From: an uncultured Victivallales bacterium
GTDB taxonomy: Bacteria; Verrucomicrobiota; Kiritimatiellia; UBA8416
DNA: 64,000 nt
Reading direction: 5' to 3'
Assembly (NCBI GenBank): GCA_964609395.1
Contig: CAZSRU010000004.1
Coordinates: 6,263-70,262 of the forward strand
The position numbers and the translations under genes are program-made. The notes under the pieces are model-generated. The model did no database searches, was not told the origin of the DNA, and was given only the letters and a program-made list of their open reading frames with translations. Shown here piece after piece: positions 4,057-44,609 of the stretch (the stretch's first letter is position 1; every line of letters starts with the position of its first letter).

Positions 4057-4248
4057 CGGGAACCCTCCGGTTACGGTGCAACCTTCATCGTTAGGGGAAG
4101 AATAGCAGGTTGCACAAAACCTGCAAACACAATCGTCTTGAGAATCGCATTGCATGACGCCCAGATTCACGCTAGATTCCCCGGCATCGTGGAGGGTCGA
4201 TCCGCGGACGGTACAATCATGACAGCGCCCACAACAGAAGGATTCGGC

Positions 4249-8989: not shown

Positions 8990-11698
8990 TCATGCCTTTA
9001 TCGCATAGCGGGCGGCTAAACCCGCGAGTGTCATTTGATCCTGGATCTGGTCGTGGGGGATGAGGAGGTAACGCCAAGGCTTGCCGCCGTTCTCCTTGGC
9101 GTGTGCCGTGGCGTGTTCGCACCATGTTGCGGCTGCATTGGCTTTGGCGATAACGGTTTCATCCGTCATCTCTTTTGACTGTTTTGGTTCGCAGAGCAGT
9201 TTCTCCGTCTGCGTCTCAACGACGAAATCAGGCTCGTAGGATTCGTCATGGCGAAAGTGAATCTGGAAGTCGCCCTTGGCGGGTTTAAACCACTTCAGAA
9301 CGGTGCCTTCATTCTCGAGGATCACCGCGAAACGACGTTCGGAGTCGGAGTCGAATTTCTGGATGGGGTAAAGGCATTTGCCAAAACTGCCGAATACCAT
9401 CGAGCCGATGTGGTTACGCTGGCCCTCGGGAACGGGAACGCGGAAATCACGTGTGTTCTCGTCTGCCGCAGCGGAGTAGTTGTTCGACCGGAGTGTACGG
9501 AAGCCTCTTGTCACGTGGGCCTCGTATTCACTCGCGGATTCGACAAAATGCTGTTGCATTTGAGAATGGATCAGGTTCGCGAGGGCCTGCTGGTGGAACT
9601 GGAGGACATTGATCACGTCGTCTTCCGTGGTCAAGTAAGATTGCAGGCGTGAAACGACCTGCCCTGCCAGCTTATACAGCAGGGCCGCGTGTTCGTCGTA
9701 ACTGACATCGTCGAAGTCGACCAGACCGCGAATCAGGTAGTCCTCTGGACGGTTTTCCATAACGATGCCGGTCCCATCCAGCAACCGATACCGCTGGTGC
9801 TCGTGCAGATGCTGGATCAGGATGTCCTGAGAGACCGGCTGGAGGTTGATATTCCTGACATCGAGGTTAAAGTCATTGTAGCCGCAAGAGACTTCACCTT
9901 TGGGAAGCACCACGATTTTGGGGATATCAATGGAGAGGTCGCAGAAAAGCGTCGTCGTGTCCTTGACGACCTTGGCGACATTCGTGATCTCGTAGACACC
10001 GGCTAATTCGCCTTGGGCCGGACGAACGATCTCCTGAACCTTCTGAACGATCTCCTGCTGAACGGCGGCATCATGGAGCTGATCGCTGCCCTTCAGGCGT
10101 TCGTACTGTTTGATGACTTGAAAGGTCGCCTTGGCAACCGACTGGTCCTCCGGCCTCTCGAAGAGCGTACGCTGCACTGCGGCCGGCTGGCCAAGGGCTG
10201 CGGGACGGGCAGGAACCATTCCACCGGAAAGGGCTTGCTCGAAGGCGCTCTTCACCTCTACGGCTTTGCGTCCGGCGTCGGGAATATCCCGACCGATCAC
10301 GACACCCGCCCGAATAATCGAGGTCGGATCGTTGGCGTGGTCCACGATCTCCTGGAACTTGTCGTGCGAAACGATGGTCAACCGGTCCACCGCCGGAACG
10401 CCTACGCGTTTCCCGTAGGGAAGACGCAAGCCACGCCCGATCGACTGTTCGACGAGAGTGCGCGAATTCGCTGCCCGGAGCGGCACGATCGTGTAGAGGT
10501 TCGTGACGTCCCAGCCTTCCTTGAGCATATTGACGTGGATGACGATCTCAACGGGATTATCCGGATGCTCGACGGTCAGAAGCTGCTGGACAACGTCATC
10601 CTTTTCCTCCCCGCGTATGTTGGAGTGGACTTGGATGACCTTGCCCTTATAGCGCCCCTCAAAGAACGCATCGCCTTCGATCAACTGTTGCAACGTGTTG
10701 GCGTGGGTGGTATCGGTTGCCACGACAAGCATGAACGGCTTGACAATGGGCTTGTCGTTATTGCGGGCGTAGATCTCCAGTTCGACCTTCGTGTTCTCAT
10801 GGATGCGCACGCCATCTTCCAATTTCACCTTTTCCAGCCCCTCGGGCGAGTAGGCGTTGGCATCGAAGTTCTCGCGGGTGGCGACAGCGGGCTCCTTTAC
10901 GAAACCGTCGTCCATTGCCGAAGAAAGCGGATAACTGTAGATGACGTTATTGAAAGGCACCGATCTGCCCCCGGTCTCCACCTGCGGCGTGGCAGTCAAC
11001 TCCAGTCCAAGAATAGGCTTGAGCTCGTTAATAGCGCGTACACCTGCGGTGGCGCGGTAACGGTGACTCTCATCCATGAGTACCACCAGATCTTCCAGGC
11101 CGGCGAGATAATCAAAGTAGCTTTCGCCGATGTACTCGCTTAGACGCTTGATCCGGGGAGCGTTCCCGCCACGCACCTCGCTGTTGATCTTTGAGATATT
11201 GAAAATATTGATGTGGACATCCTGTCCCCAGTCTGTCCCCGGCAACATGTCGGCACGACGCACGCCGCGACCGTCCTCGTAGGTGTCACCGGTCACGACA
11301 AGCGGGGGGTGGACGGCAAACTCACCGACCCCCTTGAAAACATATTTGGGCGTATTGGGTGTAAAATCGGCAATCAGCTTGTTATAGATTGTGAGATTGG
11401 GAGCCAGTACAAAGAAGTTGCGAATACCCTCTGACTGATAGAGGTAGGTTATGAACGCGCCCATGAGGCGCGTCTTTCCGACGCCCGTTGCCAAGGCGAA
11501 GCAAAGCGAAGGGAAATCCCGTTCAAACCCCTCGACCGAAGGGAACTCACTGCGGATCGTGTTCAATGCCGCGGCAGGATCGGCATCCTTGGACAAGTCG
11601 ACGATCTCGCATAAGCGGGCCAGAATTTCGAGAGAATCACGCTGCGGGGTGCGGAGACTCAGGCGATTGCTGATGGAGTTAATGTGCTGAAGCGCCAT
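8990..11698 (-). CDS. res: Type III restriction enzyme Res subunit
   Basis: 902 aa; helicase motif I (LATGVGKTRLMGAF) and II (VLMDESHR); C-terminal PD-ExK nuclease (YEPDFVVETQTEKLLCEPK); start 4 nt after mod stop. Confidence 0.85.
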   Translation of the reverse strand: MALQHINSISNRLSLRTPQRDSLEILARLCEIVDLSKDADPAAALNTIRSEFPSVEGFERDFPSLCFALATGVGKTRLMGAFITYLYQSEGIRNFFVLAPNLTIYNKLIADFTPNTPKYVFKGVGEFAVHPPLVVTGDTYEDGRGVRRADMLPGTDWGQDVHINIFNISKINSEVRGGNAPRIKRLSEYIGESYFDYLAGLEDLVVLMDESHRYRATAGVRAINELKPILGLELTATPQVETGGRSVPFNNVIYSYPLSSAMDDGFVKEPAVATRENFDANAYSPEGLEKVKLEDGVRIHENTKVELEIYARNNDKPIVKPFMLVVATDTTHANTLQQLIEGDAFFEGRYKGKVIQVHSNIRGEEKDDVVQQLLTVEHPDNPVEIVIHVNMLKEGWDVTNLYTIVPLRAANSRTLVEQSIGRGLRLPYGKRVGVPAVDRLTIVSHDKFQEIVDHANDPTSIIRAGVVIGRDIPDAGRKAVEVKSAFEQALSGGMVPARPAALGQPAAVQRTLFERPEDQSVAKATFQVIKQYERLKGSDQLHDAAVQQEIVQKVQEIVRPAQGELAGVYEITNVAKVVKDTTTLFCDLSIDIPKIVVLPKGEVSCGYNDFNLDVRNINLQPVSQDILIQHLHEHQRYRLLDGTGIVMENRPEDYLIRGLVDFDDVSYDEHAALLYKLAGQVVSRLQSYLTTEDDVINVLQFHQQALANLIHSQMQQHFVESASEYEAHVTRGFRTLRSNNYSAAADENTRDFRVPVPEGQRNHIGSMVFGSFGKCLYPIQKFDSDSERRFAVILENEGTVLKWFKPAKGDFQIHFRHDESYEPDFVVETQTEKLLCEPKQSKEMTDETVIAKANAAATWCEHATAHAKENGGKPWRYLLIPHDQIQDQMTLAGLAARYAIKA

Positions 11699-11700
11699 GA

Positions 11701-13485
11701 TTATTTATCTCCCGCAGGTTTGATGGTATCCATGTCGAAAAGTGTCGGGCCGGAATCCTTACCCTTGCCGAATTTCCGCGCCGGGCGCTTCGGCACAACA
11801 GAGGCGACGGAGGCTGCTGCTGGCAAGATTTCTGGCGCTTTTGGTAAGTTACTAATCTCCAGCGAATAATCGTCGTGCCCCCATTCGCACTTTTTCAGAA
11901 CCGCCTTGGGGATCTTCTTTACGGTTAAATTCTCAAACTGGCTGACATCGCACTTGAAGGCGGCACAGCAAACCAGAAGACTTCGATTCGGGCCGACGTC
12001 GTCGCTGAGTTTGATCAGCATCTCCTTGGTCATCATCTGCGTGGTCACATAGATGAAATCCTCCTCCGAGCTACGCCCCTGCTGCCAATATACATCAGGG
12101 TTCGGATCGAAAGTGAAGCCCTCCAGCTTGCACAACGCCTCGGCCAGCATGCCGGCATTGAAGGCGGGATTGATGACGGGGTTATCCCACTCGTCCTTGG
12201 CAATCAGAGACGGCCCAAGCCGGTAGTAGCGGAAGCCGCCGCCACCTTGCCAATTAACTGCATTGCTGATCCCGCCCTTATCCCCGCCGTCAATGACTTT
12301 CTGCAAGCGCGGAATGATGTGCGTGTGGCAATGCTCGCCCAGTTCAACCATGATCCACCGCCGCCCCATCTTATGGGCCACCGCGCCGGTGGTGCCGGAA
12401 CCCGCGAAAGAGTCGAGAACCCAGTCGCCGGGGTTGGATGACAACGAGAGAATGCGATGGACTAGTTTCTCAGGCTTTGGCGTTCCAAAGGGATCATCTT
12501 CGTTGAACGTCTTGGCCTCCTGCATTGCGATCCGATTTTCGCCGACCTCATCATAGTGCCAGGTTGTCATCGCAACGACGCCCTTGTCCTCAATCTCCGA
12601 GAGAAACCGCTTGATGCAGGGTTTGTTGCTGCCATCCTTGCCGAAGTACACGCGGTTGTCTGCCCTGAGCCGCTCGTATGAGGATTTCACATAGGCCCAT
12701 GCTCTGCCCTTTGCTGGCAGCGCAACTCTACCGGAAGGAGTGATGATCTCGTAGATATTGTCGCTGTGGCCGGTCTTTGCAAACTGCTTTCCTCGCTGCC
12801 CCGAAGAAAGACCAATTGTGAAGTCGCCAGGGAACCACGGGCCGCGCCCGTACGACTTGCCAGACTCATCAATGCCGTCGTGATCATCCGACTGTTTGTA
12901 AATTGCATTCTGTGCTTACGTCCGCTCCAGTTTCCCGGGGCGCCATAGCTCTTTGTTCTTGGCGAAGACCAAAATGTGATCGTGGCTCTCTGATAACCAC
13001 ACAGCATTGCTCTGAGGAGATGACTTCTTCCACCAGATCACGTTTGTGACGAAGTTGATGCGACCGAATATCTCGTCCATCAGAACCTTGCAATAGTGTC
13101 CCTCATTATCGTCGAGATTCACCCAGATTGATCCATCATCCGTTAGCAGCCGCCTCAGAATTTCAAGGCGGTCCCGCATCAGTGAAAGCCAAATCGAGTG
13201 TTCCACGCCGTCGTCATAGTGTGTGAATGCGGAACCCGTGTTGTAAGGCGGATCGATGTAGATGCACTTGATCTTGCCGGTGAACTCCTGTTCCAGCGCC
13301 TTGAGGGCGAGAAGGTTGTCGCCGAAGATCAGGCGATTATCGAAGAGATCGTGATTGGTCACGCGCTGGGCGGCGTGATAGGATTTCTCCGGTTCCTCGA
13401 CCAGGATGCGCGGTTCCAGTTGCGGCCGGTTCTCCTTGCCGATCCAGGTCAGTTCAAGCCGTGTGTTATTTTTTGCCATAATCAA
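11701..13485 (-). pseudogene. mod: Type III R-M Mod (N6-adenine/N4-cytosine beta-class methyltransferase) interrupted by one in-frame TAA
   Basis: Table ORFs 12916..13485 (DPPY motif IV: CIYIDPPYNTG) and 11701..12690 (motif I: VLDSFAGSGTTGAV) are in the same frame; the 225 nt between them translate without stops; only stop is TAA (tta on + strand) at 12916-12918; intact length would be ~594 aa. Confidence 0.75.
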
Positions 13486-13517
13486 TCCTTGGTCGTTGCG
13501 CGCGGAGGGGCGTGAGC

Positions 13518-16043
13518 CTATGTAGAGATTCCAATTGAGACAGGCACCTGAAGTTGAATACGAACGGGGGTGTAAAGATCGACTTTTGTTTCCGGTGTTT
13601 CAATCGAAACGATCAAGGCATAACGGGTTGTGCGATCCCACTTGCCTTTCTGGGGGCGTACGCGCCACCAACCAATGAGTGGCGTTATCACGATTAGGTT
13701 TGACTCGGCGAGCTCTGCTGCCGTCCCCGACCAGATATCCGAATGGATAGAACCTTTGTTGCGGGCCTGCCCAAGAAGCCAATGACTCGATGGGCTGTTG
13801 GTGCCCGGATGCCCGTTTTCCTCATCCCTGGCCGCATCATTAATGCGCCGCTCAAACTGCCCTCTATCCTCGGTGGGCGAATTCAGGTCAAAGCGGAGTC
13901 CATGGGAAGCATAACGGTAGCGGTCTTTCCATCCGACCTCGCCGGGACTCGGCTCGATGAAATAGGACAGCGTGACCCGCATACGGACAGTGGCATCCGG
14001 TGCCATCTGCTGCAAGGCTTCCTTTGGCCACGGCAACTCATAGAGATGCATGTCGCGAGTGCGGTAGCCACCGCTCTCCCTTTTATCGAACGGCTGGATT
14101 GCCTCTTGCGCGATAAGAGTCAGTCGGTTGCTGGCTGAATGCAGGGCCTTCTCAAGACTTGGAACCCCGTAGCCACAGGAACGCAACAGGCGTTTATAGG
14201 CCGTCTTGCTTTCGTCAGCGCAAAACTGCTGTTTGAGTGTATCGGTCCAGTCAGCGGAGTGGATCATCAGCCCGCGGACGGTTTCCGGCCAGAAATCAGG
14301 ATAGCGGACGCTGATCTGTGCGGCCATCCAAGCCGCTTGGGCGGTTGCGGCGCTGGTCATGCAAAACGGATAGAAATGTGCCTTTTGAGGATCGAAGAAG
14401 GTGGACAGCAATGACAAGTCGGCGCATTGGCTGATGAAGTTCGATGTCTGTTCCCGTGCCAGATTACCGCCTTCCAGGACAAGCTCTGGTTTAATGGGCC
14501 AACTGTCATTCCAAACCGTTGACGTTGTGCTAAACGGCGAGAGGCCGCCGCTTGGGGCAATGGGTGCATAACCGGACATACTGGGTTCACGAATCTCGTC
14601 GAGCTGTGTGAAAGCCCCGATGGTGAGAGCATTCCATGACTGAGCGGGATCGTGAACGGAATCCGTTTCTTGTGCGTCTGGGTAAGTGCCGCGGCCGTGT
14701 TCTTGCGAATTGCCGGCACTGACAATCAGCAAACGCCTGTGATCATCCTCCGCCCCCGAGCACAACTGATCCAGCGCTCCCGACCAAGACGAGGGGCGTC
14801 CCTGGTCGCGGTTGTCCGTCGTTGTCACAGCCATGCAGCCAATGCGTCGACGTTCGGGTGCTTGTATCTCGGCCTTGTAGATGGATTCTGCCGTGATGTG
14901 TCCCCATAGATGCGGGGCATTCCCTCCAGTTGGAGGGAGGATTTTGACGGACTCAAGGCAATGCGCCAGATTGACAGAACCCTTGCCAAGCATGAGTTCC
15001 TGCAAATCGTTGTATGCAGCGAGCCCCGCCATCAAGGTCCCGTGCTTATCGTGATCGTGTGTCCCCCAGGCTGCATCGAAACTGGCGCAATCGTCGGCGG
15101 ACAAGACGGGGGCCAGCAATGGATGACCGCGGTTGACGCCGGTATCGAGAATGCAAATAGACGTATCGGAATTCGGAACCACGTTGATTCTTTCGAGAAC
15201 GGATTCGACCCATTCGGCTTGATCCTTGTTATCGAGATCAAGCCAGAATGCAGCGGTTTCCTTGGCGCGACGATATTCCGCCACATCGTCGGATAATCGA
15301 CTAATGGACGCAAGCTGATCGCGGTTGACATGCACGAGCTTCACCGCCCTATCCGGGAACTTGATGCAGCCCGGTTTGCAATTAATTTGCTGGCTCGTGA
15401 GTAGGGTTTCAAACCGCTGGATGATGTCGTCACTGTCGGAGCTCAACCAGACTTCACACCATTCCGGGCTAGCGGCGGGGATTAAAGCCTTCTCATCCTG
15501 CCAAAAGGATTCAATTTCCAAGGCTTTACGAATACCGGAAATGCTTTCCAATAACACAGCGTGCTTAGGGTTATCCGATCTACTGTTCTCTTCTGTGGCG
15601 TACTGTTCGATTTTATTAAAGAAGGCGTCCTTCTTGCTGTGCGGGATAAAAATCGTGGCATAGGTAACCTTTTGCCCATCTTCTCCGGAAGATGGGCCGA
15701 CCGGTTCGCACCTGACGTTAAGCAGGCGCGTTCTATCAGCAATATCGCGAGGAACAAGATTCTCGAGGCTCTTGGTTACGAGTTGATACCCAGGCTCCCC
15801 TTTAATCTCGACAAAGACGCCATTTCGACCCGTATGGTGAACCACCTGCTCCTGCTTTGCCTCTGCCCATGCGGCAGCGAGCTGCTGTTTGAGAAAAGCA
15901 CTATGCCCGGCGCGATCGCGTGTGGGTACCGGGGGCGTCGTAACTTGAGATTGGCCGGGAGAGAATGTGCTCGTTTCGAATTGCTTGATTAACAAATGAG
16001 GGAGCTGGCTTTCCATCGCGACTATGCAACCTTCCGTCCACAC
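13518..16043 (-). CDS. subtilisin-like S8 serine peptidase, large cytoplasmic-type (IetS-like)
   Basis: 841 aa; S8 triad elements in D-H-S order: ICILDTGVNRGH, DKHGTLMAGLAAY, CMTSAATAQAAWMAA, plus oxyanion AGNS; no obvious signal peptide; overlaps upstream AAA ATPase gene by ~20 nt. Confidence 0.7.
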   Translation of the reverse strand: MWTEGCIVAMESQLPHLLIKQFETSTFSPGQSQVTTPPVPTRDRAGHSAFLKQQLAAAWAEAKQEQVVHHTGRNGVFVEIKGEPGYQLVTKSLENLVPRDIADRTRLLNVRCEPVGPSSGEDGQKVTYATIFIPHSKKDAFFNKIEQYATEENSRSDNPKHAVLLESISGIRKALEIESFWQDEKALIPAASPEWCEVWLSSDSDDIIQRFETLLTSQQINCKPGCIKFPDRAVKLVHVNRDQLASISRLSDDVAEYRRAKETAAFWLDLDNKDQAEWVESVLERINVVPNSDTSICILDTGVNRGHPLLAPVLSADDCASFDAAWGTHDHDKHGTLMAGLAAYNDLQELMLGKGSVNLAHCLESVKILPPTGGNAPHLWGHITAESIYKAEIQAPERRRIGCMAVTTTDNRDQGRPSSWSGALDQLCSGAEDDHRRLLIVSAGNSQEHGRGTYPDAQETDSVHDPAQSWNALTIGAFTQLDEIREPSMSGYAPIAPSGGLSPFSTTSTVWNDSWPIKPELVLEGGNLAREQTSNFISQCADLSLLSTFFDPQKAHFYPFCMTSAATAQAAWMAAQISVRYPDFWPETVRGLMIHSADWTDTLKQQFCADESKTAYKRLLRSCGYGVPSLEKALHSASNRLTLIAQEAIQPFDKRESGGYRTRDMHLYELPWPKEALQQMAPDATVRMRVTLSYFIEPSPGEVGWKDRYRYASHGLRFDLNSPTEDRGQFERRINDAARDEENGHPGTNSPSSHWLLGQARNKGSIHSDIWSGTAAELAESNLIVITPLIGWWRVRPQKGKWDRTTRYALIVSIETPETKVDLYTPVRIQLQVPVSIGIST

Positions 16044-16990
16044 GCATTTTGACGGTCCGCAATCGCTGCAATCAATTCACAAGCCTCGACATGCTTTTTA
16101 TCGCTAAGAACCACACTCTTAATCGCATCCCGGCAGGCATGGTCAATCTCTGCATGGCTCAAGCCGTTACAAGCGTCGATCACACGTTTCCATGAGAAGC
16201 GTGGCGCGATAAATGTACCCAGCACATTTTCAATCAAAGGTTTGACCTGATCGACTGATGGGCGCTCGTAATGCAGCACATCGTCGAAACGGCGGAACAA
16301 GGCATGGTCCAGCAAGCCGGGATTGTTTGTGGCGGCAATAATCAGGCTGTCTGATGTGTCCTGCTCGATGAATTGAAGAAAGGCATTTAGAACCCGCCGG
16401 ATTTCGCCGACGTCGTTATCGTGCGAGCGATCTCCGCCAATAGCATCGAACTCATCAAAGAGATAAACGCCATGAGCCTGCTGCATTAGATCGAATATCT
16501 GCCGAAGCTTAGCGCCCGTCTCCCCCATAAATTTAGTAACAAGGCGATCCACCTGGATGGTGTTCAGTGAAAGATTCAATTCCTTGGCCAAGACTTCCGC
16601 TGTCATGGTCTTGCCGGTTCCGGGAGGACCAACGAGCAGAATCTTGCGACGGTGAACCAATCCATGCTGCTTCAGCTTGTTCTGCTGCCGATATTCATGG
16701 ATGATTCGATCAAGCCGGGATCTGATGGTCGCCGGCACAACCATAGCCGAGATTGGCGTTAGAGGCTCCGTGGACAGGACCAGCCCTTTGAGATCAGCAG
16801 GGAAGCTAAGCAGCCGCGGACCCGCCTTCTTGCGTTCGGAGTCTATGATTTCGCGTAAATCGTGGGCCAAGGCGGCATGGCCCTGTCGAGCCTCCCCTGC
16901 GGCCAACTGCAATGAAACCGAGTAAAAGCGTTCGGCGTCATCACTGAAGTGCGACCGTATCAAAGACTTAAGTTGTTCGGCAGTAGCCAT
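16022..16990 (-). CDS. AAA family ATPase (IetA-like)
   Basis: 322 aa; Walker A LLVGPPGTGKTMTAEVLAKEL, Walker B VYLFDEFDAI; sits in AT-richer block directly upstream of S8 peptidase. Confidence 0.8.
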   Translation of the reverse strand: MATAEQLKSLIRSHFSDDAERFYSVSLQLAAGEARQGHAALAHDLREIIDSERKKAGPRLLSFPADLKGLVLSTEPLTPISAMVVPATIRSRLDRIIHEYRQQNKLKQHGLVHRRKILLVGPPGTGKTMTAEVLAKELNLSLNTIQVDRLVTKFMGETGAKLRQIFDLMQQAHGVYLFDEFDAIGGDRSHDNDVGEIRRVLNAFLQFIEQDTSDSLIIAATNNPGLLDHALFRRFDDVLHYERPSVDQVKPLIENVLGTFIAPRFSWKRVIDACNGLSHAEIDHACRDAIKSVVLSDKKHVEACELIAAIADRQNACGRKVA

Positions 16991-37045: not shown

Positions 37046-37166
37046 CGTGGCGCATGGTACAGGCAATTACACTTATTTGGCAAGCGCGTTCTTCCGCCAC
37101 CGTGGTTCAGAAAAGCAACCGTCAACGCGCTTGCATTGCCCGCCATTTTCTGGGAATCTTCCCGCC

Positions 37167-39255
37167 ATGGCTATACAACCCCTTTTCGATGAACCGTTTC
37201 TGCGTGCCCAATGGGGCTCGGAGTTCGAGTCCTTCCAGGAAAGTCCCGAGGCCGCCGCCCTGCTGGCACGTCTGCGGGCCTGGTCGGATCGCGAGCAGCT
37301 CAACGAGCGGTCGTCCGAGACCGCCTTCATCCAGCGCTTTTTCGTGGAAACGTGGGGCTACCGCCTGCAAGGCCATGCCGAAACGGGCGACGCCTATACC
37401 TGCCGCCCGCAATTCGAGGTGGCCCGCGCGGGCCAGTCCGGCGGCATCGGCTTTGCCGATCTGGCACTGGGCCGTTTCGGCCGCGATGGCATCCCCCAGG
37501 TGCTCTGCGAATTCAAGGATATCCGCTCCGGGCTCGACGCCCGCCAGCTCCGCAAGAATAACGACCGCTCACCCGTGGACCAGTGCTTCGACTAGCCATC
37601 GAGAAGACCTTCTACCGCGAATACCACGACTACCGCCAGTTCGTCTTCCGCACCCTTGTCGAAGCCAATCCGGATTTCCCCGGCACGCGTGGCCGTCTTG
37701 TGCGCCTGACCCAGCGCTTTCTCGACCGCTGCATCTTCATCCTCTTCTGCGAGGATATGGGCCGCGTCCTGCGCTATCCGCCCGAGCTGCTGCGCGATCT
37801 GCTGATGGAGGAAAGCCAGAGCCGCTTCTACAACCCCGAGGGAACGCGCCCCTGGGATGCGATGCGCGACCTCTGCCGGGCCATGCGCGAGGGTGGCCAT
37901 TTCGGCCCGCATACGATTGACCGCTTCAACGGTGGACTCTTCGAGCCAGACCCCGAACTCGATGCCTTCCCGAATGGGTCGTGCGCTATCTCGTCGAGCA
38001 GACCCTCGGCACGCGCCTCGACGACATCAAGGCCGAACTCGGCTTTACCGCCCTGCCGCCGCTCGACGAGGCCGCTCTTGCCGAATACCGGGCCTACCGC
38101 AATGACCGCCGCCGCACGGCACCCGCCGCCAGCGCGCATCTCGAGTTCCTCCGCAAATACCGGTTCCGGCTCGACCGCGTGCGCATCGTGGATCCCGCCT
38201 GCGGCTCCGGGGCCTTCCTGATCCAGGCGCTCAACCGCCTTGTCGAGGAATACCGCTGGGTCATCGCCGAGCAAGCCCGCATCGAGGGCGAACAGAGCCT
38301 CTTCGATCAGGACTCCGTCATCCGTTCCATTCTCGCCCACAACATCTACGGCGTGGACATCAACCCCGAATCCGTCGAGATCACCAAGCTCGCGCTATGG
38401 CTGCACACCGCGGCCCCCGGCAAACCGCTCTGCTCGCTGGATGCCAACATCCGCTGCGGCAACAGCCTGGTCGGACCCGACTTCGCCGAGTTCTACCGCC
38501 AGAAGCACACCACGCTCTTCGAGCAGGCCGACGAGAACGAGCGCGAGCGCATCAACGCCTTCGACTGGGAAGCCGCCTTTGCCGACGTCTTCACCCACGG
38601 CGGCTTCGACTGCGTCGTCGGCAATCCGCCCTACATCAAGCTCCAGCACTTCCGCCGTACCCAACCGGACATCGCCGATTACTTAGTAGGGCAAGCTTCC
38701 AGCTTGCCAAATCGCAAGCAAGATGCTTGGGCTACTTACGAAAGCACCCAGACCGGCAACTTCGACATGTACCTGCCCTTCATCGAAAAGGGGATCCGAC
38801 TGCTGCGCCCCGAAGGCCGCATGGGCTACATCGCGCCAAACGTCTGGATGGTCAACGACTACGGCAAGGCCCTGCGCGGTCTCGTGCGCCGTACCCGCGC
38901 GCTCGACCGCTGGGTCGATTTCAAAAGCCACCAGATCTTCGACGAAGCCATCACCTACACCGCCCTCCAGTTCTTCTACGACCGCCCCGACACCCCCTTC
39001 ATCGCGGCCCAATGGCGCTACACCCTCCGCGACGCCAACGTAACGGAAGCCTACGACGGCAAACGCCTTCTCAAAGACCTCCTCACCCTCCGCACCACCA
39101 CCGACACCCCCCTCCGCGACCGCATCCTCACCCTCGACGCCGAAATCACCGCCCTGGACACCACCATAGCCACCCGCGAAACCGCCCTAAACGCCATTAC
39201 CTACCGCCTCTACCGCCTAACGCCGGAAGAGATTGCAACGGTGGAGGCGGGGTGA
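37167..39255 (+). pseudogene. MmeI-family Type IIG restriction-modification enzyme gene disrupted by at least two frameshifts
   Basis: Three table ORFs in three frames (37167..37595, 37583..38221, 37981..39255). N-terminal PD-ExK region (GIGFADLALGRFGRDGIPQVLCEFKD). MmeI-like helical region (IEKTFYREYHDYRQF...CIFILFCEDMG). Gamma-class MTase motif I VDPACGSGAFL and motif IV VVGNPPYIK. C-terminal ...YRLYRLTPEEIATVEAG. Confidence 0.7.
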
Positions 39256-39872
39256 TGAATGCCGGTGTGAACACCGCCAGCAAAACGCCCGCCGCGCCCC
39301 CTCGTCCTGCGCCCCTTGTTCACAAGGGGCCTGTTCACAAGGGGCCAAGAGAAAAGGTGCAAGGCTACCGCTTCCCCACCCGCGATTACCGCCAACCCGC
39401 CTTCTACCTGATCACGATGAGCGCCCTCGACCGCCGCCCGCGTTTCGCCACCTGCGCCGAGAACCGCACCACGCTGACCGAGGACGGCCAGCTCGTTTAC
39501 GACCTCTGGCACCGCATCGCCAAAGACTACCCGCAAATTGCGCTTTCGACGCTGGTCATCATGCCCGACCGCCTGCACGGCATCGTCTCTCGATTCATCT
39601 CGCCGGGGGAAAAGGACATCGCCCGCGCCGCGCTGGATGCGGGCGGCGTGGTCATCCTCATGAAACCCGACGGATTCCCGCCCTGCTTCAAGCCCCACGG
39701 CAAATACTTCGACCTCTGTGTCCAAGGCCGGCTCCTCATCCTCGCCTGCCGCCCGCCCGCGGCAGGCAACACCCCCGTCACCCGCGATCTCTGCCTCGCC
39801 ATGAACCGCTGGTGCCAGCACGTTGCAAAGCCACTATGCCCCGTGGATGGAGAAGATGAGGGCAGGGAATGA
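39255..39872 (+). CDS. IS200/IS605-family (RAYT-like) transposase-related protein, probably inactivated derivative
   Basis: 205 aa; YRFPTRDYRQPAFYLITMSALDRRPRF and VIMPDRLHGIV (HuH degenerate to RLH); 5' end contains two copies of palindromic ccccttgttcacaagggg REP-like unit; start overlaps stop of Type IIG gene. Confidence 0.45.
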   Translation: MNAGVNTASKTPAAPPRPAPLVHKGPVHKGPREKVQGYRFPTRDYRQPAFYLITMSALDRRPRFATCAENRTTLTEDGQLVYDLWHRIAKDYPQIALSTLVIMPDRLHGIVSRFISPGEKDIARAALDAGGVVILMKPDGFPPCFKPHGKYFDLCVQGRLLILACRPPAAGNTPVTRDLCLAMNRWCQHVAKPLCPVDGEDEGRE

Positions 39873-39899: not shown

Positions 39900-40697
39900 G
39901 TGGCAATCGGAAGCAGCGTTATTACAATCGGCAACTATGCGTTCTCAGGCTGCAGAAAACTGACTAACATTACAATTCCAGACAACGTTAGCACCATCGG
40001 TTCATATGCATTCCAATACTGCGACAGCCTGGCCAACGTGATCATGGGCACAAGTGTTTCTTATATCGGTTCCTTTGCTTTTGAAAACTGCTATGGCTTA
40101 CTAAGCGTCGTGATTCCTGACAACGTCACTGATATTGGCAACTGGGCTTTCGGAGGCTGCACAAATCTGGCCCGTGTAACAATCGGCAACGGCGTCACCA
40201 CCATCGGGTCCTACGCTTTCTACTGGTGCTCAACTCTCACCGTTGTGTATTTCACTGGTGACGCACCTGCTCCCGATGCTTCAGTATTCGAAAACTCCCC
40301 CGCCACCATCTACTACTTGCCTAACACTATCGGCTGGGGCGACACATATTCCACCCGTCCCGCCAAACTCTGGAATCCCACGTTCACATTCATCGATATC
40401 AACGCAGGCATCATGACCTATACTATTGCAGGTACTCCGGAGATTCCGATCGCGATTGAAGTTCGTACGAATCTCCTCTCAGGCGAATGGACTCGGCTCT
40501 CCACAACTAACCTTACTGAGGGATTCCTTAATATCCAAATCTCCCGACTCAACCAACCATGCTGCTCTGTTTTATCGTATCGTCGGCCCGTGAGTGGAGC
40601 AGCAGAGCTTTTTTGGGGCTCACCGCTCTTCACCTTGAACTCCCTAATGGGGCAGCGCGATCAATTATTGTGCATGGTAATGACTCTGGGAATGTGA
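39900..40697 (+). CDS. BspA-type leucine-rich-repeat protein, probably a fragment
   Basis: GTG start, no RBS or signal peptide; repeated ~22-aa units (I..IGNYAFSGC..L..ITIPDNVSTIGSYAFQYC..L..V); low-GC; 3' end runs into repeat rep1. Confidence 0.5.
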   Translation: MAIGSSVITIGNYAFSGCRKLTNITIPDNVSTIGSYAFQYCDSLANVIMGTSVSYIGSFAFENCYGLLSVVIPDNVTDIGNWAFGGCTNLARVTIGNGVTTIGSYAFYWCSTLTVVYFTGDAPAPDASVFENSPATIYYLPNTIGWGDTYSTRPAKLWNPTFTFIDINAGIMTYTIAGTPEIPIAIEVRTNLLSGEWTRLSTTNLTEGFLNIQISRLNQPCCSVLSYRRPVSGAAELFWGSPLFTLNSLMGQRDQLLCMVMTLGM

Positions 40698-40775
40698 TAG
40701 GAATATGAATCATGAATGCGGAACTTACAAGGCGTTGTGTGCGGGCGATGACGGAGACCGGCGAGGGATCGCTGG
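40628..40775 (+). repeat. ~145-bp interspersed repeat, copy 1 (rep1)
   Basis: ~85-90% identical to copies at 41803-41950 and 43979-44122 over ...gcgatcattttgtgcatggcaatgactctgggaatgtgataggaatatgaatcatgaatgcggaacttataaggcgttgtgtgcgggcgatgacggaaaccgg.gaggg. Confidence 0.75.
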
Positions 40776-40921
40776 TGCCGCTGTGCCGTAAAATCGTGCG
40801 CAATTTCCACGTGGCCGAGGTTCCGCATCGGAGCAGGCAGACGAAAACAAAGCAAAGCGTCTTCTTGCAAACGTGACCAGCGTCGGTCATAGTCTATCGC
40901 AAAAGCGCAGGCAGGTACTGG

Positions 40922-41722
40922 ATGACAGTTCAGAATTCAATTACTTTTGGCGACTACATCGTCTTTGTCGATGAAACCGGCGATCACGGCTTAAACAGCA
41001 TCAGCAAGGAATTCCCGCTGTTTGGTTTGGCATTTTGCGTCGTTCGAAAATCCGAGTACATCGGCACCATCACGCCCGCTCTGCGTCGGCTGAAGTTTCA
41101 GACATTCGGGCACGATATCATCGTACTGCATGAGCACGATATCAGGAAACGCGAGAATGCCTTTGCCATGATGAGCAGGCAACCTCGTGAGGCATTTCTA
41201 AATGCGCTAACAAAAATCATCGAATCGGCCGCATTTAGACTCATCACGGTCATTATCGATAAACGGCTTTTGTCTCCTTCGCTGGAAGCGCAAAACCCTT
41301 ATCACATGGCGCTTTTGTTTGGTCTTGAACGTGTATACCGCATGCTATCAGAATGCGGGCAGGCCGACACATTTACGCATATTGTCGTTGAGTCGAGGGG
41401 CAAGCGGGAAGATGCTGAACTCGAACTGGAGTTCCACCGCATCACGGAAGGTGAGAATACGTTCGCCAAACCATTGCCGTTCCGTCTGATCATGGCCGAT
41501 AAACGGACCAATTCCGAAGGGCTTCAGCTTGCGGATATGGTTGCACGCCCCGTTGCGCTTTCAATCCTTCGCCCTGATCAGGCAAACCGAGCCTTTGATG
41601 TCTTACGTGACAAATTCTGGACCAGCGCCGACGGCATCATGGATGATTACGGTCTTAAAGTGTATCCGACAAAAACGAAAGGGCCACCGGGAAGTCCCAG
41701 TAGCCCTTCGCCGAACGGGTAG
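40922..41722 (+). CDS. DUF3800-family protein
   Basis: 266 aa; N-terminal YIVFVDETGDHGL and C-terminal SEGLQLADMVARP signature regions; low-GC; flanked by rep1 and rep2. Confidence 0.6.
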   Translation: MTVQNSITFGDYIVFVDETGDHGLNSISKEFPLFGLAFCVVRKSEYIGTITPALRRLKFQTFGHDIIVLHEHDIRKRENAFAMMSRQPREAFLNALTKIIESAAFRLITVIIDKRLLSPSLEAQNPYHMALLFGLERVYRMLSECGQADTFTHIVVESRGKREDAELELEFHRITEGENTFAKPLPFRLIMADKRTNSEGLQLADMVARPVALSILRPDQANRAFDVLRDKFWTSADGIMDDYGLKVYPTKTKGPPGSPSSPSPNG

Positions 41723-41802
41723 TCCCATTCCAAATCTGGTTTGATACTAGCCTGTCTTAGTGAAATAGCCAATCATTTTTTCAGTTGGCATTTGGGGTAC
41801 TC

Positions 41803-41950
41803 CATTCTCCCCTTTGAATTGCCGAGGGGCCGCGATCATTTTTGTGCATGGCAATGCGCTGGGAATGTGATAGGAATATGGATCATGAATGCGCAACTTA
41901 TAAGGCGTTGTGTGCGGGCGATGACGGAAACCGGTGAGGGCACGCTGGTG
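41803..41950 (+). repeat. ~145-bp interspersed repeat, copy 2 (rep2)
   Basis: see rep1; carries conserved short ORF start ATGAATGCGcaacttataaggcgttgtgtgcgggcgatgacggaaaccggtgagggc (MNAQLIRRCVRAMTETGEG). Confidence 0.75.
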
Positions 41951-41999
41951 ATGGTTTTTTGAGAATTGAACGGAGTATGACATTGGAAGGAGGCCGGTT

Positions 42000-43280
42000 A
42001 TGGCCAAGATTGAAGGGTTCAGGGTACGCAACTTTGGCGTGCTGAGGGATGTTACGCTTGGGAAATTGTGGAATTTGCAGACTGCCCAGCCGTTGACCCC
42101 CATGACTGCGGTTATCGGCAAGAACGGCGTCGGCAAAAGCACGTTGTTCAATGCATTCGGCTTTCTCGCGGATGCCTTGAAATCGGGTGTCGAGGAGGCT
42201 TGCGACGCGCGCGGGAGAGGCGGATTCGACAGGATTCGGTCTCAAGGCATCAAAGAGCCGGTAGAGTTCGAGATCTACTACAAGGAAGAGGGCAGTACAC
42301 GTCCAATCACGTACTCACTCTCGATGGATCTGGACAAGACCGGCCGTCCCTATGTGAAGCAAGAACGGTTGCGGCAGCGGCGCAAGGGCCAGAAGCATGG
42401 GTGGCCATTCTCGTTTCTGATGCTGAACGATGGCAAGGGTGTCGCGTGGAAAGGCGAGGATGCCGGCTGGGAGGTGAACGAGGACAAGGAGTTGTTCGAT
42501 CTGGCAGGTCTTATTGACGAGGTGCAGCGCAAGGAAGGTCCTGAAACCGAAGTCGTTGAGTTGCAGGACAAGCGTAAACTCGGCATTGCCACACTCGGGT
42601 CTTTGAAACAACATCCCCGCATCTCGCTGTTCCGGCAGTTTATCGAAGGTTGGTATCTGAGCTACTTCACGCCTGACGCCGCCCGAGGATTGCCGCTGGC
42701 CGGTCCGCAACGCCATTTGAACATTCACGGCGACAATGTCGGTAATGTCGTTCAGTACATGGAGCGGGAATACCCCGCTAAGTTCCAGACCGTACTGGAT
42801 CGCATCTCGAAGAAGATTCCGGGTATCGATAAGATCACCTGGGATAAGACGAAAGACGGCCGGTTGCTGCTCTGTTTTAACGACAAGGGATTCGAAGATC
42901 CCTTTTATGCCCAACAAATGTCGGACGGCACACTGAAAGTATTCGCCTACCTTCTTTTGCTTGAAGACCCTTCGCCCCCGCCGTTCCTATGCATTGAGGA
43001 ACCAGAGAACGGGCTCTATCACAAGTTACTCGAGACTCTGGCGGCTGAGTTCCGTGCCCATGCAACGGGAAGAAAAGGCGGTTCGCAGGTTTTCGTCACT
43101 ACGCATCAACCGTATTTTGTCGATGCACTGACCCCCGAAGAGGTGTGGGTATTGGAAAAGGGCAAAGACGGTTTCTCAACCGTCCGTCGCGCTAGCGACG
43201 ATCAAACCGTACAGAACATGGTAACCGAAGGGTTGCCCCTGGGCGGCCTGTGGTACAGCGACTATCTTGACGCGAGGTAA
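42000..43280 (+). CDS. AAA/ABC-type ATPase of two-gene defence-like module (AbiLi / PARIS AriA-like)
   Basis: ATG after GGAAGGAGG; Walker A VIGKNGVGKSTLFNAFGFL; ABC signature-like QMSDGTLKV; Walker B/D-loop PPFLCIEEPENGLY; H-loop VFVTTHQPYF. Confidence 0.75.
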   Translation: MAKIEGFRVRNFGVLRDVTLGKLWNLQTAQPLTPMTAVIGKNGVGKSTLFNAFGFLADALKSGVEEACDARGRGGFDRIRSQGIKEPVEFEIYYKEEGSTRPITYSLSMDLDKTGRPYVKQERLRQRRKGQKHGWPFSFLMLNDGKGVAWKGEDAGWEVNEDKELFDLAGLIDEVQRKEGPETEVVELQDKRKLGIATLGSLKQHPRISLFRQFIEGWYLSYFTPDAARGLPLAGPQRHLNIHGDNVGNVVQYMEREYPAKFQTVLDRISKKIPGIDKITWDKTKDGRLLLCFNDKGFEDPFYAQQMSDGTLKVFAYLLLLEDPSPPPFLCIEEPENGLYHKLLETLAAEFRAHATGRKGGSQVFVTTHQPYFVDALTPEEVWVLEKGKDGFSTVRRASDDQTVQNMVTEGLPLGGLWYSDYLDAR

Positions 43281-43284
43281 TCGC

Positions 43285-43944
43285 ATGCACTTTGAAATAC
43301 TGGTTGAAGACCAATCCGGGAAAAAGCTGTTGGACGAGATTGTGCCGCGCATCATTGGTGCTCCCCACACCTTTCGAGTACTGCCTTACAAGGGGATTGG
43401 AAAAATCCCGAAAGGATTGAAGCCTGGTTCTGATGCGAGCAAACGAATCCTTCTGGATCAACTGCCCCGCATTCTCAAAGGGCACGGAAAGACCTTTGCC
43501 GGCTACGGTCCGGGCTATCTTGCGGCGGTGGTTATTGTCTGTGATCTGGATCGCAAGTGTTTCCATGAATTCCGCCAAGAGCTTCTCGGAATTTTGGATG
43601 CTTGCGACCCGAGACCAGATACCCGATTCTGCCTTGCTGTCGAGGAGGGAGAGGCATGGCTTCTTGGAGACCGCGAGGCTATTCGAGCGACCTATCCGAA
43701 TGCAAAGTCCGCAGTTCTTGATGGCTACGTTCAGGACAGCATCTGCGACACTTGGGAATTGCTTGCAGACGCAATCCATCCCGGAGGCTCAAGAGCGTTG
43801 ATTGCTGCGGGATGGCAGGCCGCTGGAGCTGCCAAGTCGGCCTGGGCCACAGCGATTTCTCCTCACATGAAGATTGAAGACAACAATTCGCCAAGTTTTC
43901 ACTATTTTCGAAGCAAATTGCTAGAACTTGCTGGACAGAATTAA
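43285..43944 (+). CDS. DUF4276-like protein (predicted Toprim/OLD-like partner of the ATPase; AbiLii-like)
   Basis: ATG 43285 seven nt after GAGGT and 5 nt after ATPase stop; N-terminus MHFEILVEDQSGKKLL typical of DUF4276 (conserved E in ILVE); 219 aa. Confidence 0.55.
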   Translation: MHFEILVEDQSGKKLLDEIVPRIIGAPHTFRVLPYKGIGKIPKGLKPGSDASKRILLDQLPRILKGHGKTFAGYGPGYLAAVVIVCDLDRKCFHEFRQELLGILDACDPRPDTRFCLAVEEGEAWLLGDREAIRATYPNAKSAVLDGYVQDSICDTWELLADAIHPGGSRALIAAGWQAAGAAKSAWATAISPHMKIEDNNSPSFHYFRSKLLELAGQN

Positions 43945-43978
43945 TGGTCTGTTCTGTCTCGCAATTAAGGGGGTGTCG

Positions 43979-44122
43979 CCATTCTCCTCTTTAAATTGCC
44001 GTGTGTCGGCCGCGATGGTTGTTGAGCATGGCAATGACTCTGGGAATGTGATAGGAATATGCATTATGAATGCGGAACTTATAAGGCGTTGTGTGCGGGC
44101 GATGACGGAAACCGGCAAGGGC
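43979..44122 (+). repeat. ~145-bp interspersed repeat, copy 3 (rep3)
   Basis: see rep1; its short ORF (MNAELIRRCVRAMTETGKGLI) ends TGA directly abutting ATG of next gene (TGAATG). Confidence 0.75.
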
Positions 44123-44131
44123 TTGATATGA

Positions 44132-44410
44132 ATGAAGGGCTATGTTAGCTTGTTCCGCACGGGGGTAAACGAAATGGTTATGGTTCAGGCACGAATTCTC
44201 GATCCTACACACTTGGAACTGGCAAAGCCGATTGCGGCCGGGCACGAACGCAATATCTTTGTTCTGATTACGGAACAACCGCATGCGGATGCCGAGAAAC
44301 AGCAGTGGATGGATGCCTCTTCGGAATCCCTGCAGAATGCATACGGTGACACGGAACCAGAGTACACCCCCTCGATGGTACGCGAGGCCAATCCGGAGCA
44401 CCGGGCATGA
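44132..44410 (+). CDS. small DUF104/antitoxin-like protein (tentative)
   Basis: 92 aa; N-terminal MVMVQARILDPTHLELAKPIAAGHERNIFVLI resembles SpoVT/AbrB-like or DUF104 antitoxin N-termini; no partner toxin seen. Confidence 0.3.
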   Translation: MKGYVSLFRTGVNEMVMVQARILDPTHLELAKPIAAGHERNIFVLITEQPHADAEKQQWMDASSESLQNAYGDTEPEYTPSMVREANPEHRA

Positions 44411-44609
44411 AGGAAGGCGTTATTCGGCTGGGGTTTCTCGCGGTCTTACCGAACAAGCGAATCGTGGGAGCAATCGGCCATATTGCTCCTGAGCGACACA
44501 CGCGCCTTCTGCGAACGCTTAGCAGGCATCTGATCGGGAATAGCCCCCTTTCCTGACATTCTCTCTCGCCGCCATCGTCAATTCTAACAACACGGAATGG
44601 CACCGACCC

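Follow-up and report, generated by a model that had tools for sequence, protein, structure and literature searches.

A HEC-01-class ATPase/Toprim gene pair and a DUF3800 gene with a structured antisense element, set between direct repeats in an uncultured Victivallales bacterium

Introduction

PARIS, AbiL and MADS3-4 have been grouped as systems that combine an AAA15/21 ATPase with a Toprim protein, and the Toprim nuclease of PARIS, once let go by its ATPase scaffold, cuts tRNA (PMC11464382). DUF4276 has been placed in the Toprim superfamily, Mad4 being a DUF4276 homologue and Mad3 its ATPase (PMC12065111). A further class, HEC-01 (Hma-embedded candidate 1), is made up of an ABC ATPase together with a TOPRIM protein with a conserved metal site and was defined as embedded in helicase/methylase/ATPase (Hma) systems (Payne et al. 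2024, preprint, 10.1101/2024.01.29.577857). A 2026 study reports protection of E. coli B by a cold-seep HEC-01 against one or more of the phages T4, T5 and T7 (PMC12881386). Here, we describe a HEC-01-type pair that lies beside a DUF3800 gene in a 64,000-nucleotide (nt) stretch of an uncultured Victivallales bacterium (assembly GCA_964609395.1, contig CAZSRU010000004.1, positions 6,263 to 70,262 of the forward strand). This whole stretch is called the window, and all positions are counted from its first letter.

DUF3800 proteins are reported to have an RNase H-like fold (PMC7736814, PMC10910872), with an N-terminal DE and a C-terminal QxxD motif (PMC7736814), and their genes associate with 11 classes of structured RNA motif, several of which end in terminators (PMC5737381). 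A reading made earlier from the letters of the window, hereafter the original prediction, had proposed that the interval 40922–43944 carries a solitary DUF3800 gene and an ATPase–DUF4276 pair of AbiL, PARIS or OLD type as cassette cargo. Our analysis indicates that the interval is likely to hold two separate, intact, horizontally acquired defence-type modules in a low-GC (guanine plus cytosine) variable island, each bracketed by copies of a direct repeat.

Results

The three open reading frames (ORFs) are present and intact on the plus strand, as claimed, running start to end from 40922 to 43944 in an island of a Verrucomicrobia-like genome. They are indeed AT-richer than their surroundings, the GC content being 0.50–0.55 over 40–44 kb versus 0.62–0.69 in the flanks on either side.

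By profile comparison, the pair at 42000–43944 is a member of the HEC-01 class of PADLOC, because its two proteins match the HEC-01A and HEC-01B profiles end to end, which we regard as decisive. The ABC-type (AAA_21/AAA_15) ATPase of 426 amino acids (aa; 42000..43280, plus strand) matched HEC-01A (PDLC04182) at E 4.8e-194, with residues 1–425 on profile positions 1–402 of 406, and Pfam AAA_21 at E 5.1e-45, along with AAA_15. The small protein, a 219-aa Toprim-fold protein of DUF4276 type (43285..43944, plus strand, read from the ATG giving MHFEILVEDQSG), matched HEC-01B at E 2.4e-92 over its full length. The motifs that had been named for the ATPase were all found, and each is invariant in 24 aligned homologues: Walker A (G40-K41-N42-G43-x-G45-K46-S47), a signature-like motif (Q305-x-M307-S308-D309-G310-T311, or QxMSDGT), Walker B (C331-x-E333-E334, or CIEE) and the H-loop (T367-T368-H369).

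The Toprim fold suggested for the small protein was borne out by structure prediction. The model has strands at residues 2–7, 29–34, 80–86 and 113–119, which form the four-stranded parallel alpha/beta core of a Toprim domain with a Glu after strand 1 and a DxD after strand 3, and its best structural matches are the Toprim regions of OLD and GajA. In the homologue alignment, the invariant acidic residues are E8-D9, D87-x-D89 and E120-E121-x-E123, and the window protein thereby keeps its full set of acidic residues for metal binding (Glu8, Asp87-x-Asp89 and Glu120/121/123). A PDB sequence search returned nothing for the small protein and, for the ATPase, only a P-loop match to the Thermus OLD protein. 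Between the two genes, the good ribosome-binding site of the original prediction is present as a GAGG within the 3' end of the ATPase gene, and the gap, given as 5 nt, is 4 nt from the stop to the next ATG. The position of this site inside the upstream gene suggests translational coupling.

Could the pair nevertheless be an AbiL (AbiLi/AbiLii) or PARIS (AriA/AriB) system, as had been proposed? All of these are pairs of an AAA_15/21 ABC ATPase with a Toprim protein, falling within the wider group of PMC11464382 that includes AbiL and MADS3-4, and the ATPase gave secondary PADLOC matches to AriA (1.9e-40), AbiLi (2.6e-25) and mad3 (1.4e-21). However, HEC-01A matched over the full length and with an E value about 150 orders of magnitude better. 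The AriA match (residues 35–375 on profile positions 1–304 of 304) we read as generic AAA_21-type, because its coverage is exactly that of Pfam AAA_21. Furthermore, the small protein matched no AbiLii, AriB, AriAB or mad4 profile in PADLOC at E <= 0.01. A real AbiL pair looks different: one in a related genome (Verrucomicrobia bacterium UBA6015, DIZZ01000216.1, 1–8000; locus L001) scored 3.4e-99 for AbiLi and 9.1e-29 for AbiLii, with Pfam RloB at 1.9e-41 for the partner, and an hhalign comparison of our DUF4276-type alignment with that RloB/AbiLii protein gave a probability of 0.5%. AbiL or PARIS membership is refuted by these profile tests, and we regard such an identity as highly improbable.

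The known systems place the pair as follows. It resembles HEC-01 in its full-length profile matches, its adjacent co-oriented genes, its ABC ATPase with a Toprim-like partner and conserved metal site, and in having homologues embedded in methylase/helicase systems. On the other hand, the window pair lies outside an intact Hma system, with a broken Eco57I-type methylase about 2.7 kb away and copies of a lineage-specific repeat on either side, and its sub-clade is exceptionally conserved. PARIS, in which the AriA ABC ATPase works with the DUF4435 Toprim protein AriB, shares the two-gene arrangement of an AAA_15/21 ATPase and a Toprim nuclease and is the best mechanistic template, although the window nuclease is of DUF4276 and not DUF4435 type and has no AriB match. 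AbiL likewise joins an ATPase of the same superfamily to a small Toprim-superfamily partner, but AbiLii is RloB-type, and the window partner has neither an AbiLii match nor RloB profile similarity. The proposed likeness to class-1 OLD proteins holds as an analogy and fails as membership: OLD and GajA each carry their ATPase and Toprim parts fused in one polypeptide, whereas here there are two ORFs with their own starts, and identity is about 16–20%. Finally, Mad3–Mad4 of MADS also joins an ATPase to a DUF4276 homologue, and the window ATPase matches mad3, but the small protein lacks a mad4 match and no other MADS genes lie nearby.

The ATPase is presumed, from the analogy of PARIS, OLD and Gabija, to be the sensor or scaffold and the small protein the nuclease effector. 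An ATPase oligomer would hold or gate the nuclease and sense an infection cue; ATP binding or hydrolysis would then license the Toprim protein to cut nucleic acid, either tRNA or DNA; and the cleavage would halt phage replication, probably at the cost of the infected cell, as in abortive infection.

Homologues are numerous (more than 4200 for the small protein and more than 8000 for the ATPase, most of them 62–80% identical to the window proteins) and occur in Gammaproteobacteria, Cyanobacteria, Desulfobacter, Nitrospira, Omnitrophota, Aminicenantes, a Heimdallarchaeota metagenome-assembled genome (MAG) and Methanosarcina. All independent homologous loci that we compared, three IMG/VR contigs among them, have the small gene directly downstream of the ATPase gene, and the chromosomal ones have an intergenic gap of 4 nt. 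The surroundings differ from host to host. In Methanosarcina, the pair is flanked by Thoeris with two methylases and by an SNF2 helicase with PglZ; the Shewanella pair lies in a variable region adjoining Imm11 genes; and in the closest relative, it adjoins a ResIII helicase and a DprA-like gene. Two Ectothiorhodospira genomes encode one identical nuclease protein, each at a different chromosomal site, and the relative that shares the methylase to the left of the window island (L001) holds different cargo. The pair is seldom found on plasmids (2 records) or in phage records (1). The placement of the homologues shows an accessory pair that moves between genomes. The original prediction had named conservation at syntenic core-genome positions of relatives as grounds for abandoning its view, and the homologues were found at non-syntenic, defence-island sites.

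Two of these loci deserve a fuller description. The locus of Methanosarcina sp. WWM596 (CP009503.1, 1–17293 of our extract L019) is a dense defence island with a Fic/SLFN-like gene, two large N6_N4 methylases, ThsA, ThsB, the HEC-01 pair, an SNF2 helicase and PglZ. In Shewanella algae (8001–9972 of L020–L022), the pair lies directly 3' of gcvP.

The same comparisons bear on whether the pair might be a housekeeping factor for DNA repair or chromosome maintenance, of RecF or SMC kind. Amino-acid conservation does reach housekeeping levels across Bacteria and Archaea, and the ATPase has weak SMC_N and AAA_23 matches. However, the SMC_N match (26.3 bits against a cutoff of 40) covers the P-loop only, the distribution is patchy and non-syntenic, two strains of one genus differing in the site of the pair, and the neighbours are restriction, BREX and Thoeris genes. 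Moreover, the pair sits in a low-GC island between repeats, and a syntenic relative lacks it at the equivalent place. A housekeeping role is barely credible on this evidence.

The conservation itself is nevertheless striking. Between the window and L010, L019 and L020, amino-acid identity is 76–87% for the ATPase and 63–76% for the nuclease, and four-fold degenerate sites are 23–45% identical, which is at random level and saturated. Saturated four-fold sites together with high protein identity indicate old lineages under very strong purifying selection. Because of this selection on both proteins, the cue or target of the pair may be a conserved molecule rather than a fast-evolving phage protein.

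The first module of the interval is a DUF3800 gene of 266 aa (40922..41722, plus strand). Its proposed membership was confirmed by Pfam PF12686, which it matched with 54.9 bits against a cutoff of 21 over profile positions 1–147 of 149. The residues conserved in the DUF3800 alignment are D17-E18, D113, E157 and Q202-x-x-D205, of which D17-E18 and Q202-x-x-D205 agree with the published DE and QxxD motifs. Homologues with 56–72% identity are common in Verrucomicrobia and Betaproteobacteria. We compared genomic contexts at seven independent loci besides the window. At two of the seven, the gene lies inside a type I restriction operon (in the orders hsdM–DUF3800–hsdS and hsdS, two small genes, DUF3800, hsdR), and at two more, it directly follows an N6_Mtase gene or gene fragment. 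Because it is repeatedly embedded in type I restriction operons, the DUF3800 module may be taken from its neighbourhood to act in defence. At one betaproteobacterial MAG locus (L023, 3001–3798), the DUF3800 gene with the element described below is inserted between gcvT and gcvH, so that this module and the HEC-01 pair are both found at a glycine-cleavage operon, in different hosts; this may be a coincidence.

The DUF3800 gene is not solitary, as the original prediction had it: a conserved 69-nt two-hairpin element, recognised by comparison of DNA and by folding, accompanies it at 41666..41734 on the minus strand, antisense to the 3' end of the gene. The element covers the last ~55 nt of the ORF and 12 nt past the stop. 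At five Verrucomicrobia loci, the DNA is near-identical from ~55 nt before the ORF's end to 12–17 nt after the stop, although the proteins of these loci are only 63–70% identical and third codon positions upstream vary freely. The element was present at all eight distinct DUF3800 loci (the window and its homologues), at one of which the ORF stops before the element starts. The conserved C-terminal tail GPPGSPSSPSPNG of the protein appears to be a mere translation of the element. A covariance model built on it found exactly one copy per DUF3800 gene and none elsewhere in 306 kb. No conserved sequence was seen upstream of the DUF3800 genes when homologous loci were compared.

Several features would fit an RNA made from the minus strand. 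There, the stems of the hairpins are GAAUGGG/CCCGUUC and AAGGGCUACUGGG/CCCGGUGGCCCUU, and the single-sequence folds of two distant copies gave the same two hairpins. In the alignment, 96.2% of cells are paired and six pairs carry changes on both sides, i.e., compensatory changes; none of 500 shuffles matched the paired-cell, double-change or covariation score, and slid controls were 37–57% paired. Several of the minus-strand pairs are G:U, for which the plus strand would have C:A mismatches, and the minus strand folds with a minimum free energy of -38.2 kcal/mol (z -5.74), compared with -23.9 for the plus strand. The second hairpin, with a U-run after it, is terminator-like. We infer that the element could give rise to a small antisense RNA, which would either regulate the expression of DUF3800 or bind to the nuclease as an antitoxin-like or guide-like partner.

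How does this element relate to the RNAs already linked to DUF3800 genes? It resembles the motifs DUF3800-I to -XI (Weinberg et al. 2017) in that the gene travels with a structured, RNA-like element that has a terminator-like end, and it differs in overlapping the 3' end of the gene in antisense; the comparison was made through Rfam families only. No DUF3800-* family was found in Rfam at E <= 1 in 12 kb or at E <= 10 in 200 nt, nor at the gathering threshold in four homologous DUF3800 loci and three repeat-bearing loci. The element itself drew only generic, terminator-type sub-threshold matches (ctRNA_pGA1, BjrC68), and its core had no match among viral contigs. With the DUF3800 genes associated with type VII retrons and Cas12a2, the window gene shares the DUF3800 family and its RNase H-like fold (PMC7736814, PMC10910872), and no reverse transcriptase or Cas12 gene is among the ORFs listed around it.

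Both modules are bracketed by a direct repeat of 150–180 nt, found by repeat search and alignment in three plus-strand copies, the sole ones in the 64 kb (shuffled expectation, 0.00): copy 1 at ~40615..40797, with a degenerate left half, copy 2 at ~41802..41950 and copy 3 at ~43971..44123. In the left half, a variable centre is flanked by the short inverted repeats CATTC(T)CC/GGGAATG and ATTGCC/GGCAAT. The right half is strongly conserved and ends in a short hairpin; after an AGGA it may hold a small ORF, MNAELIRRCVRAMTETGEG..., of 21–54 aa, with about six synonymous and seven non-synonymous changes and a frameshift in one copy. At the right end of copy 2 (41930–41949), ~50 nt upstream of the ATPase start, this hairpin is terminator-like with a T-run, and an equivalent hairpin without one is seen in other copies. 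In a promoter and terminator scan of 39.8–44.7 kb, sites were no commoner than in shuffles.

Where else does the repeat occur? A 20-mer scan of a genome collection gave three matches: the Verrucomicrobia MAG UBA6015 (L001), a Victivallales MAG (L002), whose copy is 88% identical to copy 1 over 184 nt, and L003, which we discarded as a chance match inside a phoH gene. A metagenome scan gave three contigs only, two from the organism of L001 and a third locus, L004. The repeat had no match among plasmids and no family in Rfam. L001 contains three copies, one of which (~4075–4200) lacks the central ~60 nt, and its cargo is different: a RhuM protein (PDC-S05, 4.3e-164), the true AbiL pair described above and an ATPase of another HEC-01A subfamily (6.8e-134), any downstream partner of which would be encoded past the sequence end. 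Two copies in L004 enclose a 112-aa membrane protein, and a housekeeping FAH gene stands beside the last copy, which is truncated. Because different cargo lies between repeat copies in relatives, we read the repeat from these alignments as a boundary mark of interchangeable modules, mostly defence-like.

The original prediction had treated the repeats as those of cassettes. The genes do lie between repeats, and the integron nature that this implies did not hold, since no attC hallmark was found among those tested. Were the repeats attC sites, the region would be a cassette array, either a chromosomal integron or an integrase-less attC cluster. Indeed, the repeat lies 10–75 nt past the stop of each upstream module in one orientation, as attC sites do, the cargo differs between relatives, and the last module has a toxin-antitoxin look, a kind of cargo often met in chromosomal integrons; the inverted repeats of the left half around a variable centre, absent from one L001 copy, would also fit. 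However, single-strand DNA folding was no better than in shuffles on either strand (z -0.71 to +1.31 over eight copy/strand combinations), and the core boxes AAC...GTT, in full R''/R' RYYYAAC ... GTTRRRY, were not seen at the repeat ends, as judged by reading the sequence and not by a covariance model. A reading of the alignment showed changes in one arm of the inverted repeat to be uncompensated in the other, strong conservation continues ~90 nt past the putative right arm, and the truncated terminal copies end at differing points. Pfam gave no integrase or recombinase domain in 20 large ORFs (ten at 5–24 kb and ten at 32–49 kb), a scan that left out the large ORFs at ~24–32 kb and 49–64 kb of the window. 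We rejected the attC reading on folding, core boxes, compensatory changes and the lack of an integrase in the scanned ORFs, and consider it very improbable.

Single-orientation modules, a recurring site just downstream and defence-rich content that varies between relatives remain shared with integron cassettes, whereas the repeat differs in having a 90-nt conserved extension and no core boxes, stable single-strand hairpin or covariation. As a mechanism, one may think of site-specific recombination, with the enzyme encoded elsewhere, of homologous recombination between copies, or of a shared expression leader. Possibly, though we hold the idea only tentatively and think it more apt to fail than to stand, the repeats are the recombination sites of a non-integron cassette platform of Verrucomicrobia/Lentisphaerae, in the Planctomycetes–Verrucomicrobia–Chlamydiae (PVC) group, which collects and swaps single defence modules by means of a recombinase encoded elsewhere. 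The cargo of such a platform would include HEC-01, AbiL, RhuM and DUF3800 with its RNA, and the conserved right half, with its small ORF or leader and ribosome-binding site, would give an inserted module its expression signals.

The gene order of the island is an LRR_5 gene, repeat copy 1, DUF3800, copy 2, the ATPase and small protein, copy 3 and a two-ORF remnant, to the right of which lies a convergent host glycosyltransferase gene. The first gene (39900..40697, plus strand) encodes a BspA-type leucine-rich-repeat protein of 265 aa (Pfam LRR_5, E 4.1e-36) without a PADLOC match; its ORF extends into repeat copy 1, so that the C-terminus of the protein is repeat-encoded. The last module (44132..44550, plus strand) consists, by ORF calls, of a 92-aa ORF overlapping one of ~49 aa, neither with a Pfam match, and by the impression of their sequences it is possibly a small two-gene remnant, perhaps of a decayed toxin-antitoxin-like pair.

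To the left of the island, an Eco57I/MmeI-type N6-adenine methyltransferase gene (37164..39255, plus strand; Pfam Eco57I, E 1.5e-42 for the last frame) is broken by shifts near 37590 and 37960 into three reading frames and is apparently a pseudogene unless the shifts are assembly errors. L001 starts with the C-terminus of the same methylase, and L004 retains only its promoter region and first 17 codons (91% identity over 91 nt). Directly 3' of this gene lies a 205-aa ORF (39255–39872) without a Pfam match, which we take to recall a Y1 transposase of the IS200/RAYT type whose HUH motif (...IMPDRLHGIV...) is degenerate. The window holds a second low-GC island (8990–16990, minus strand, GC 0.53–0.59), with a ResIII helicase/nuclease and an N6_N4 methylase split in two ORFs, a type III restriction-like and possibly frameshifted set, and with an AAA ATPase adjoining an 841-aa subtilase (Peptidase_S8).

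Discussion

Do these two modules serve in defence? Their folds, families and neighbourhoods make it likely, and several observations weigh against it. In E. coli, the HEC-01 representative of Payne et al. protected against none of the phages tried (10.1101/2024.01.29.577857), and purifying selection as strong as that on the pair is unusual for defence genes engaged in an arms race. DUF3800 has no PADLOC model, and at three of the seven other loci, among them the one between gcvT and gcvH, its gene is a bare single-gene insertion without defence neighbours. As for the element, the U-run is weak in its betaproteobacterial copies, and no sigma-70-type promoter was found for it. The structure prediction for the ATPase had a mean predicted local distance difference test score (pLDDT) of 51.4 from a shallow alignment of 78–95% identity and was not used. 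Finally, the DUF4276 assignment of the small protein stood as to type, with an invariant E8 and a full-length HEC-01B match, and fell short of the Pfam threshold, as the match to PF14103 (profile positions 1–191 of 192) scored 24.8 bits, under the gathering cutoff of 30.2. Among precomputed Pfam labels, PF14103 is assigned to the identical protein and to most homologues, with a flag of faint or weak, and we consider the protein a borderline, divergent member of DUF4276.

Some of these observations would also be expected if the modules were selfish addiction or stabilisation elements of toxin-antitoxin kind, which harm cells that lose them and have no anti-phage role. Both are compact and mobile and are found at unrelated sites (DUF3800 between gcvT and gcvH, the pair at two Ectothiorhodospira sites), purifying selection on both proteins of the pair is strong, and one HEC-01 did not protect against phage. 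Furthermore, a nuclease with a cis-antisense RNA recalls the layouts of type I and type III toxin-antitoxin systems, and the name AAA_21 derives from the context of AbiEii and type IV toxin-antitoxin systems. On the other hand, both modules lie repeatedly in restriction or BREX-like operons and beside Thoeris, and one HEC-01 did protect against phage. The two roles are, moreover, not exclusive, as many abortive-infection systems are toxin-antitoxin-like. We judge a purely selfish function unlikely and favour two defence-type modules. The original prediction, partly supported as a whole, was right about folds, families and the accessory, defence-like character of the genes and wrong about AbiL/PARIS and the integron.

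What does the locus add? Its cargo adds little, since HEC-01 and DUF3800 are kinds already catalogued, and the unexplained part is the packaging of this cargo by the repeat. If the repeat is a recombination site, it would represent a second way, besides integrons, of building arrays of defence cassettes. The DUF3800 gene and its covarying antisense element form a compact nuclease-plus-RNA pair with which to approach the long-open question of the function of DUF3800-associated RNAs. The HEC-01 sub-clade retains 76–87% identity from Verrucomicrobia to Methanosarcina over saturated synonymous sites, and a defence sensor so constrained probably recognises a conserved molecule, which makes this sub-clade a good candidate for finding what ABC-ATPase/Toprim systems sense.

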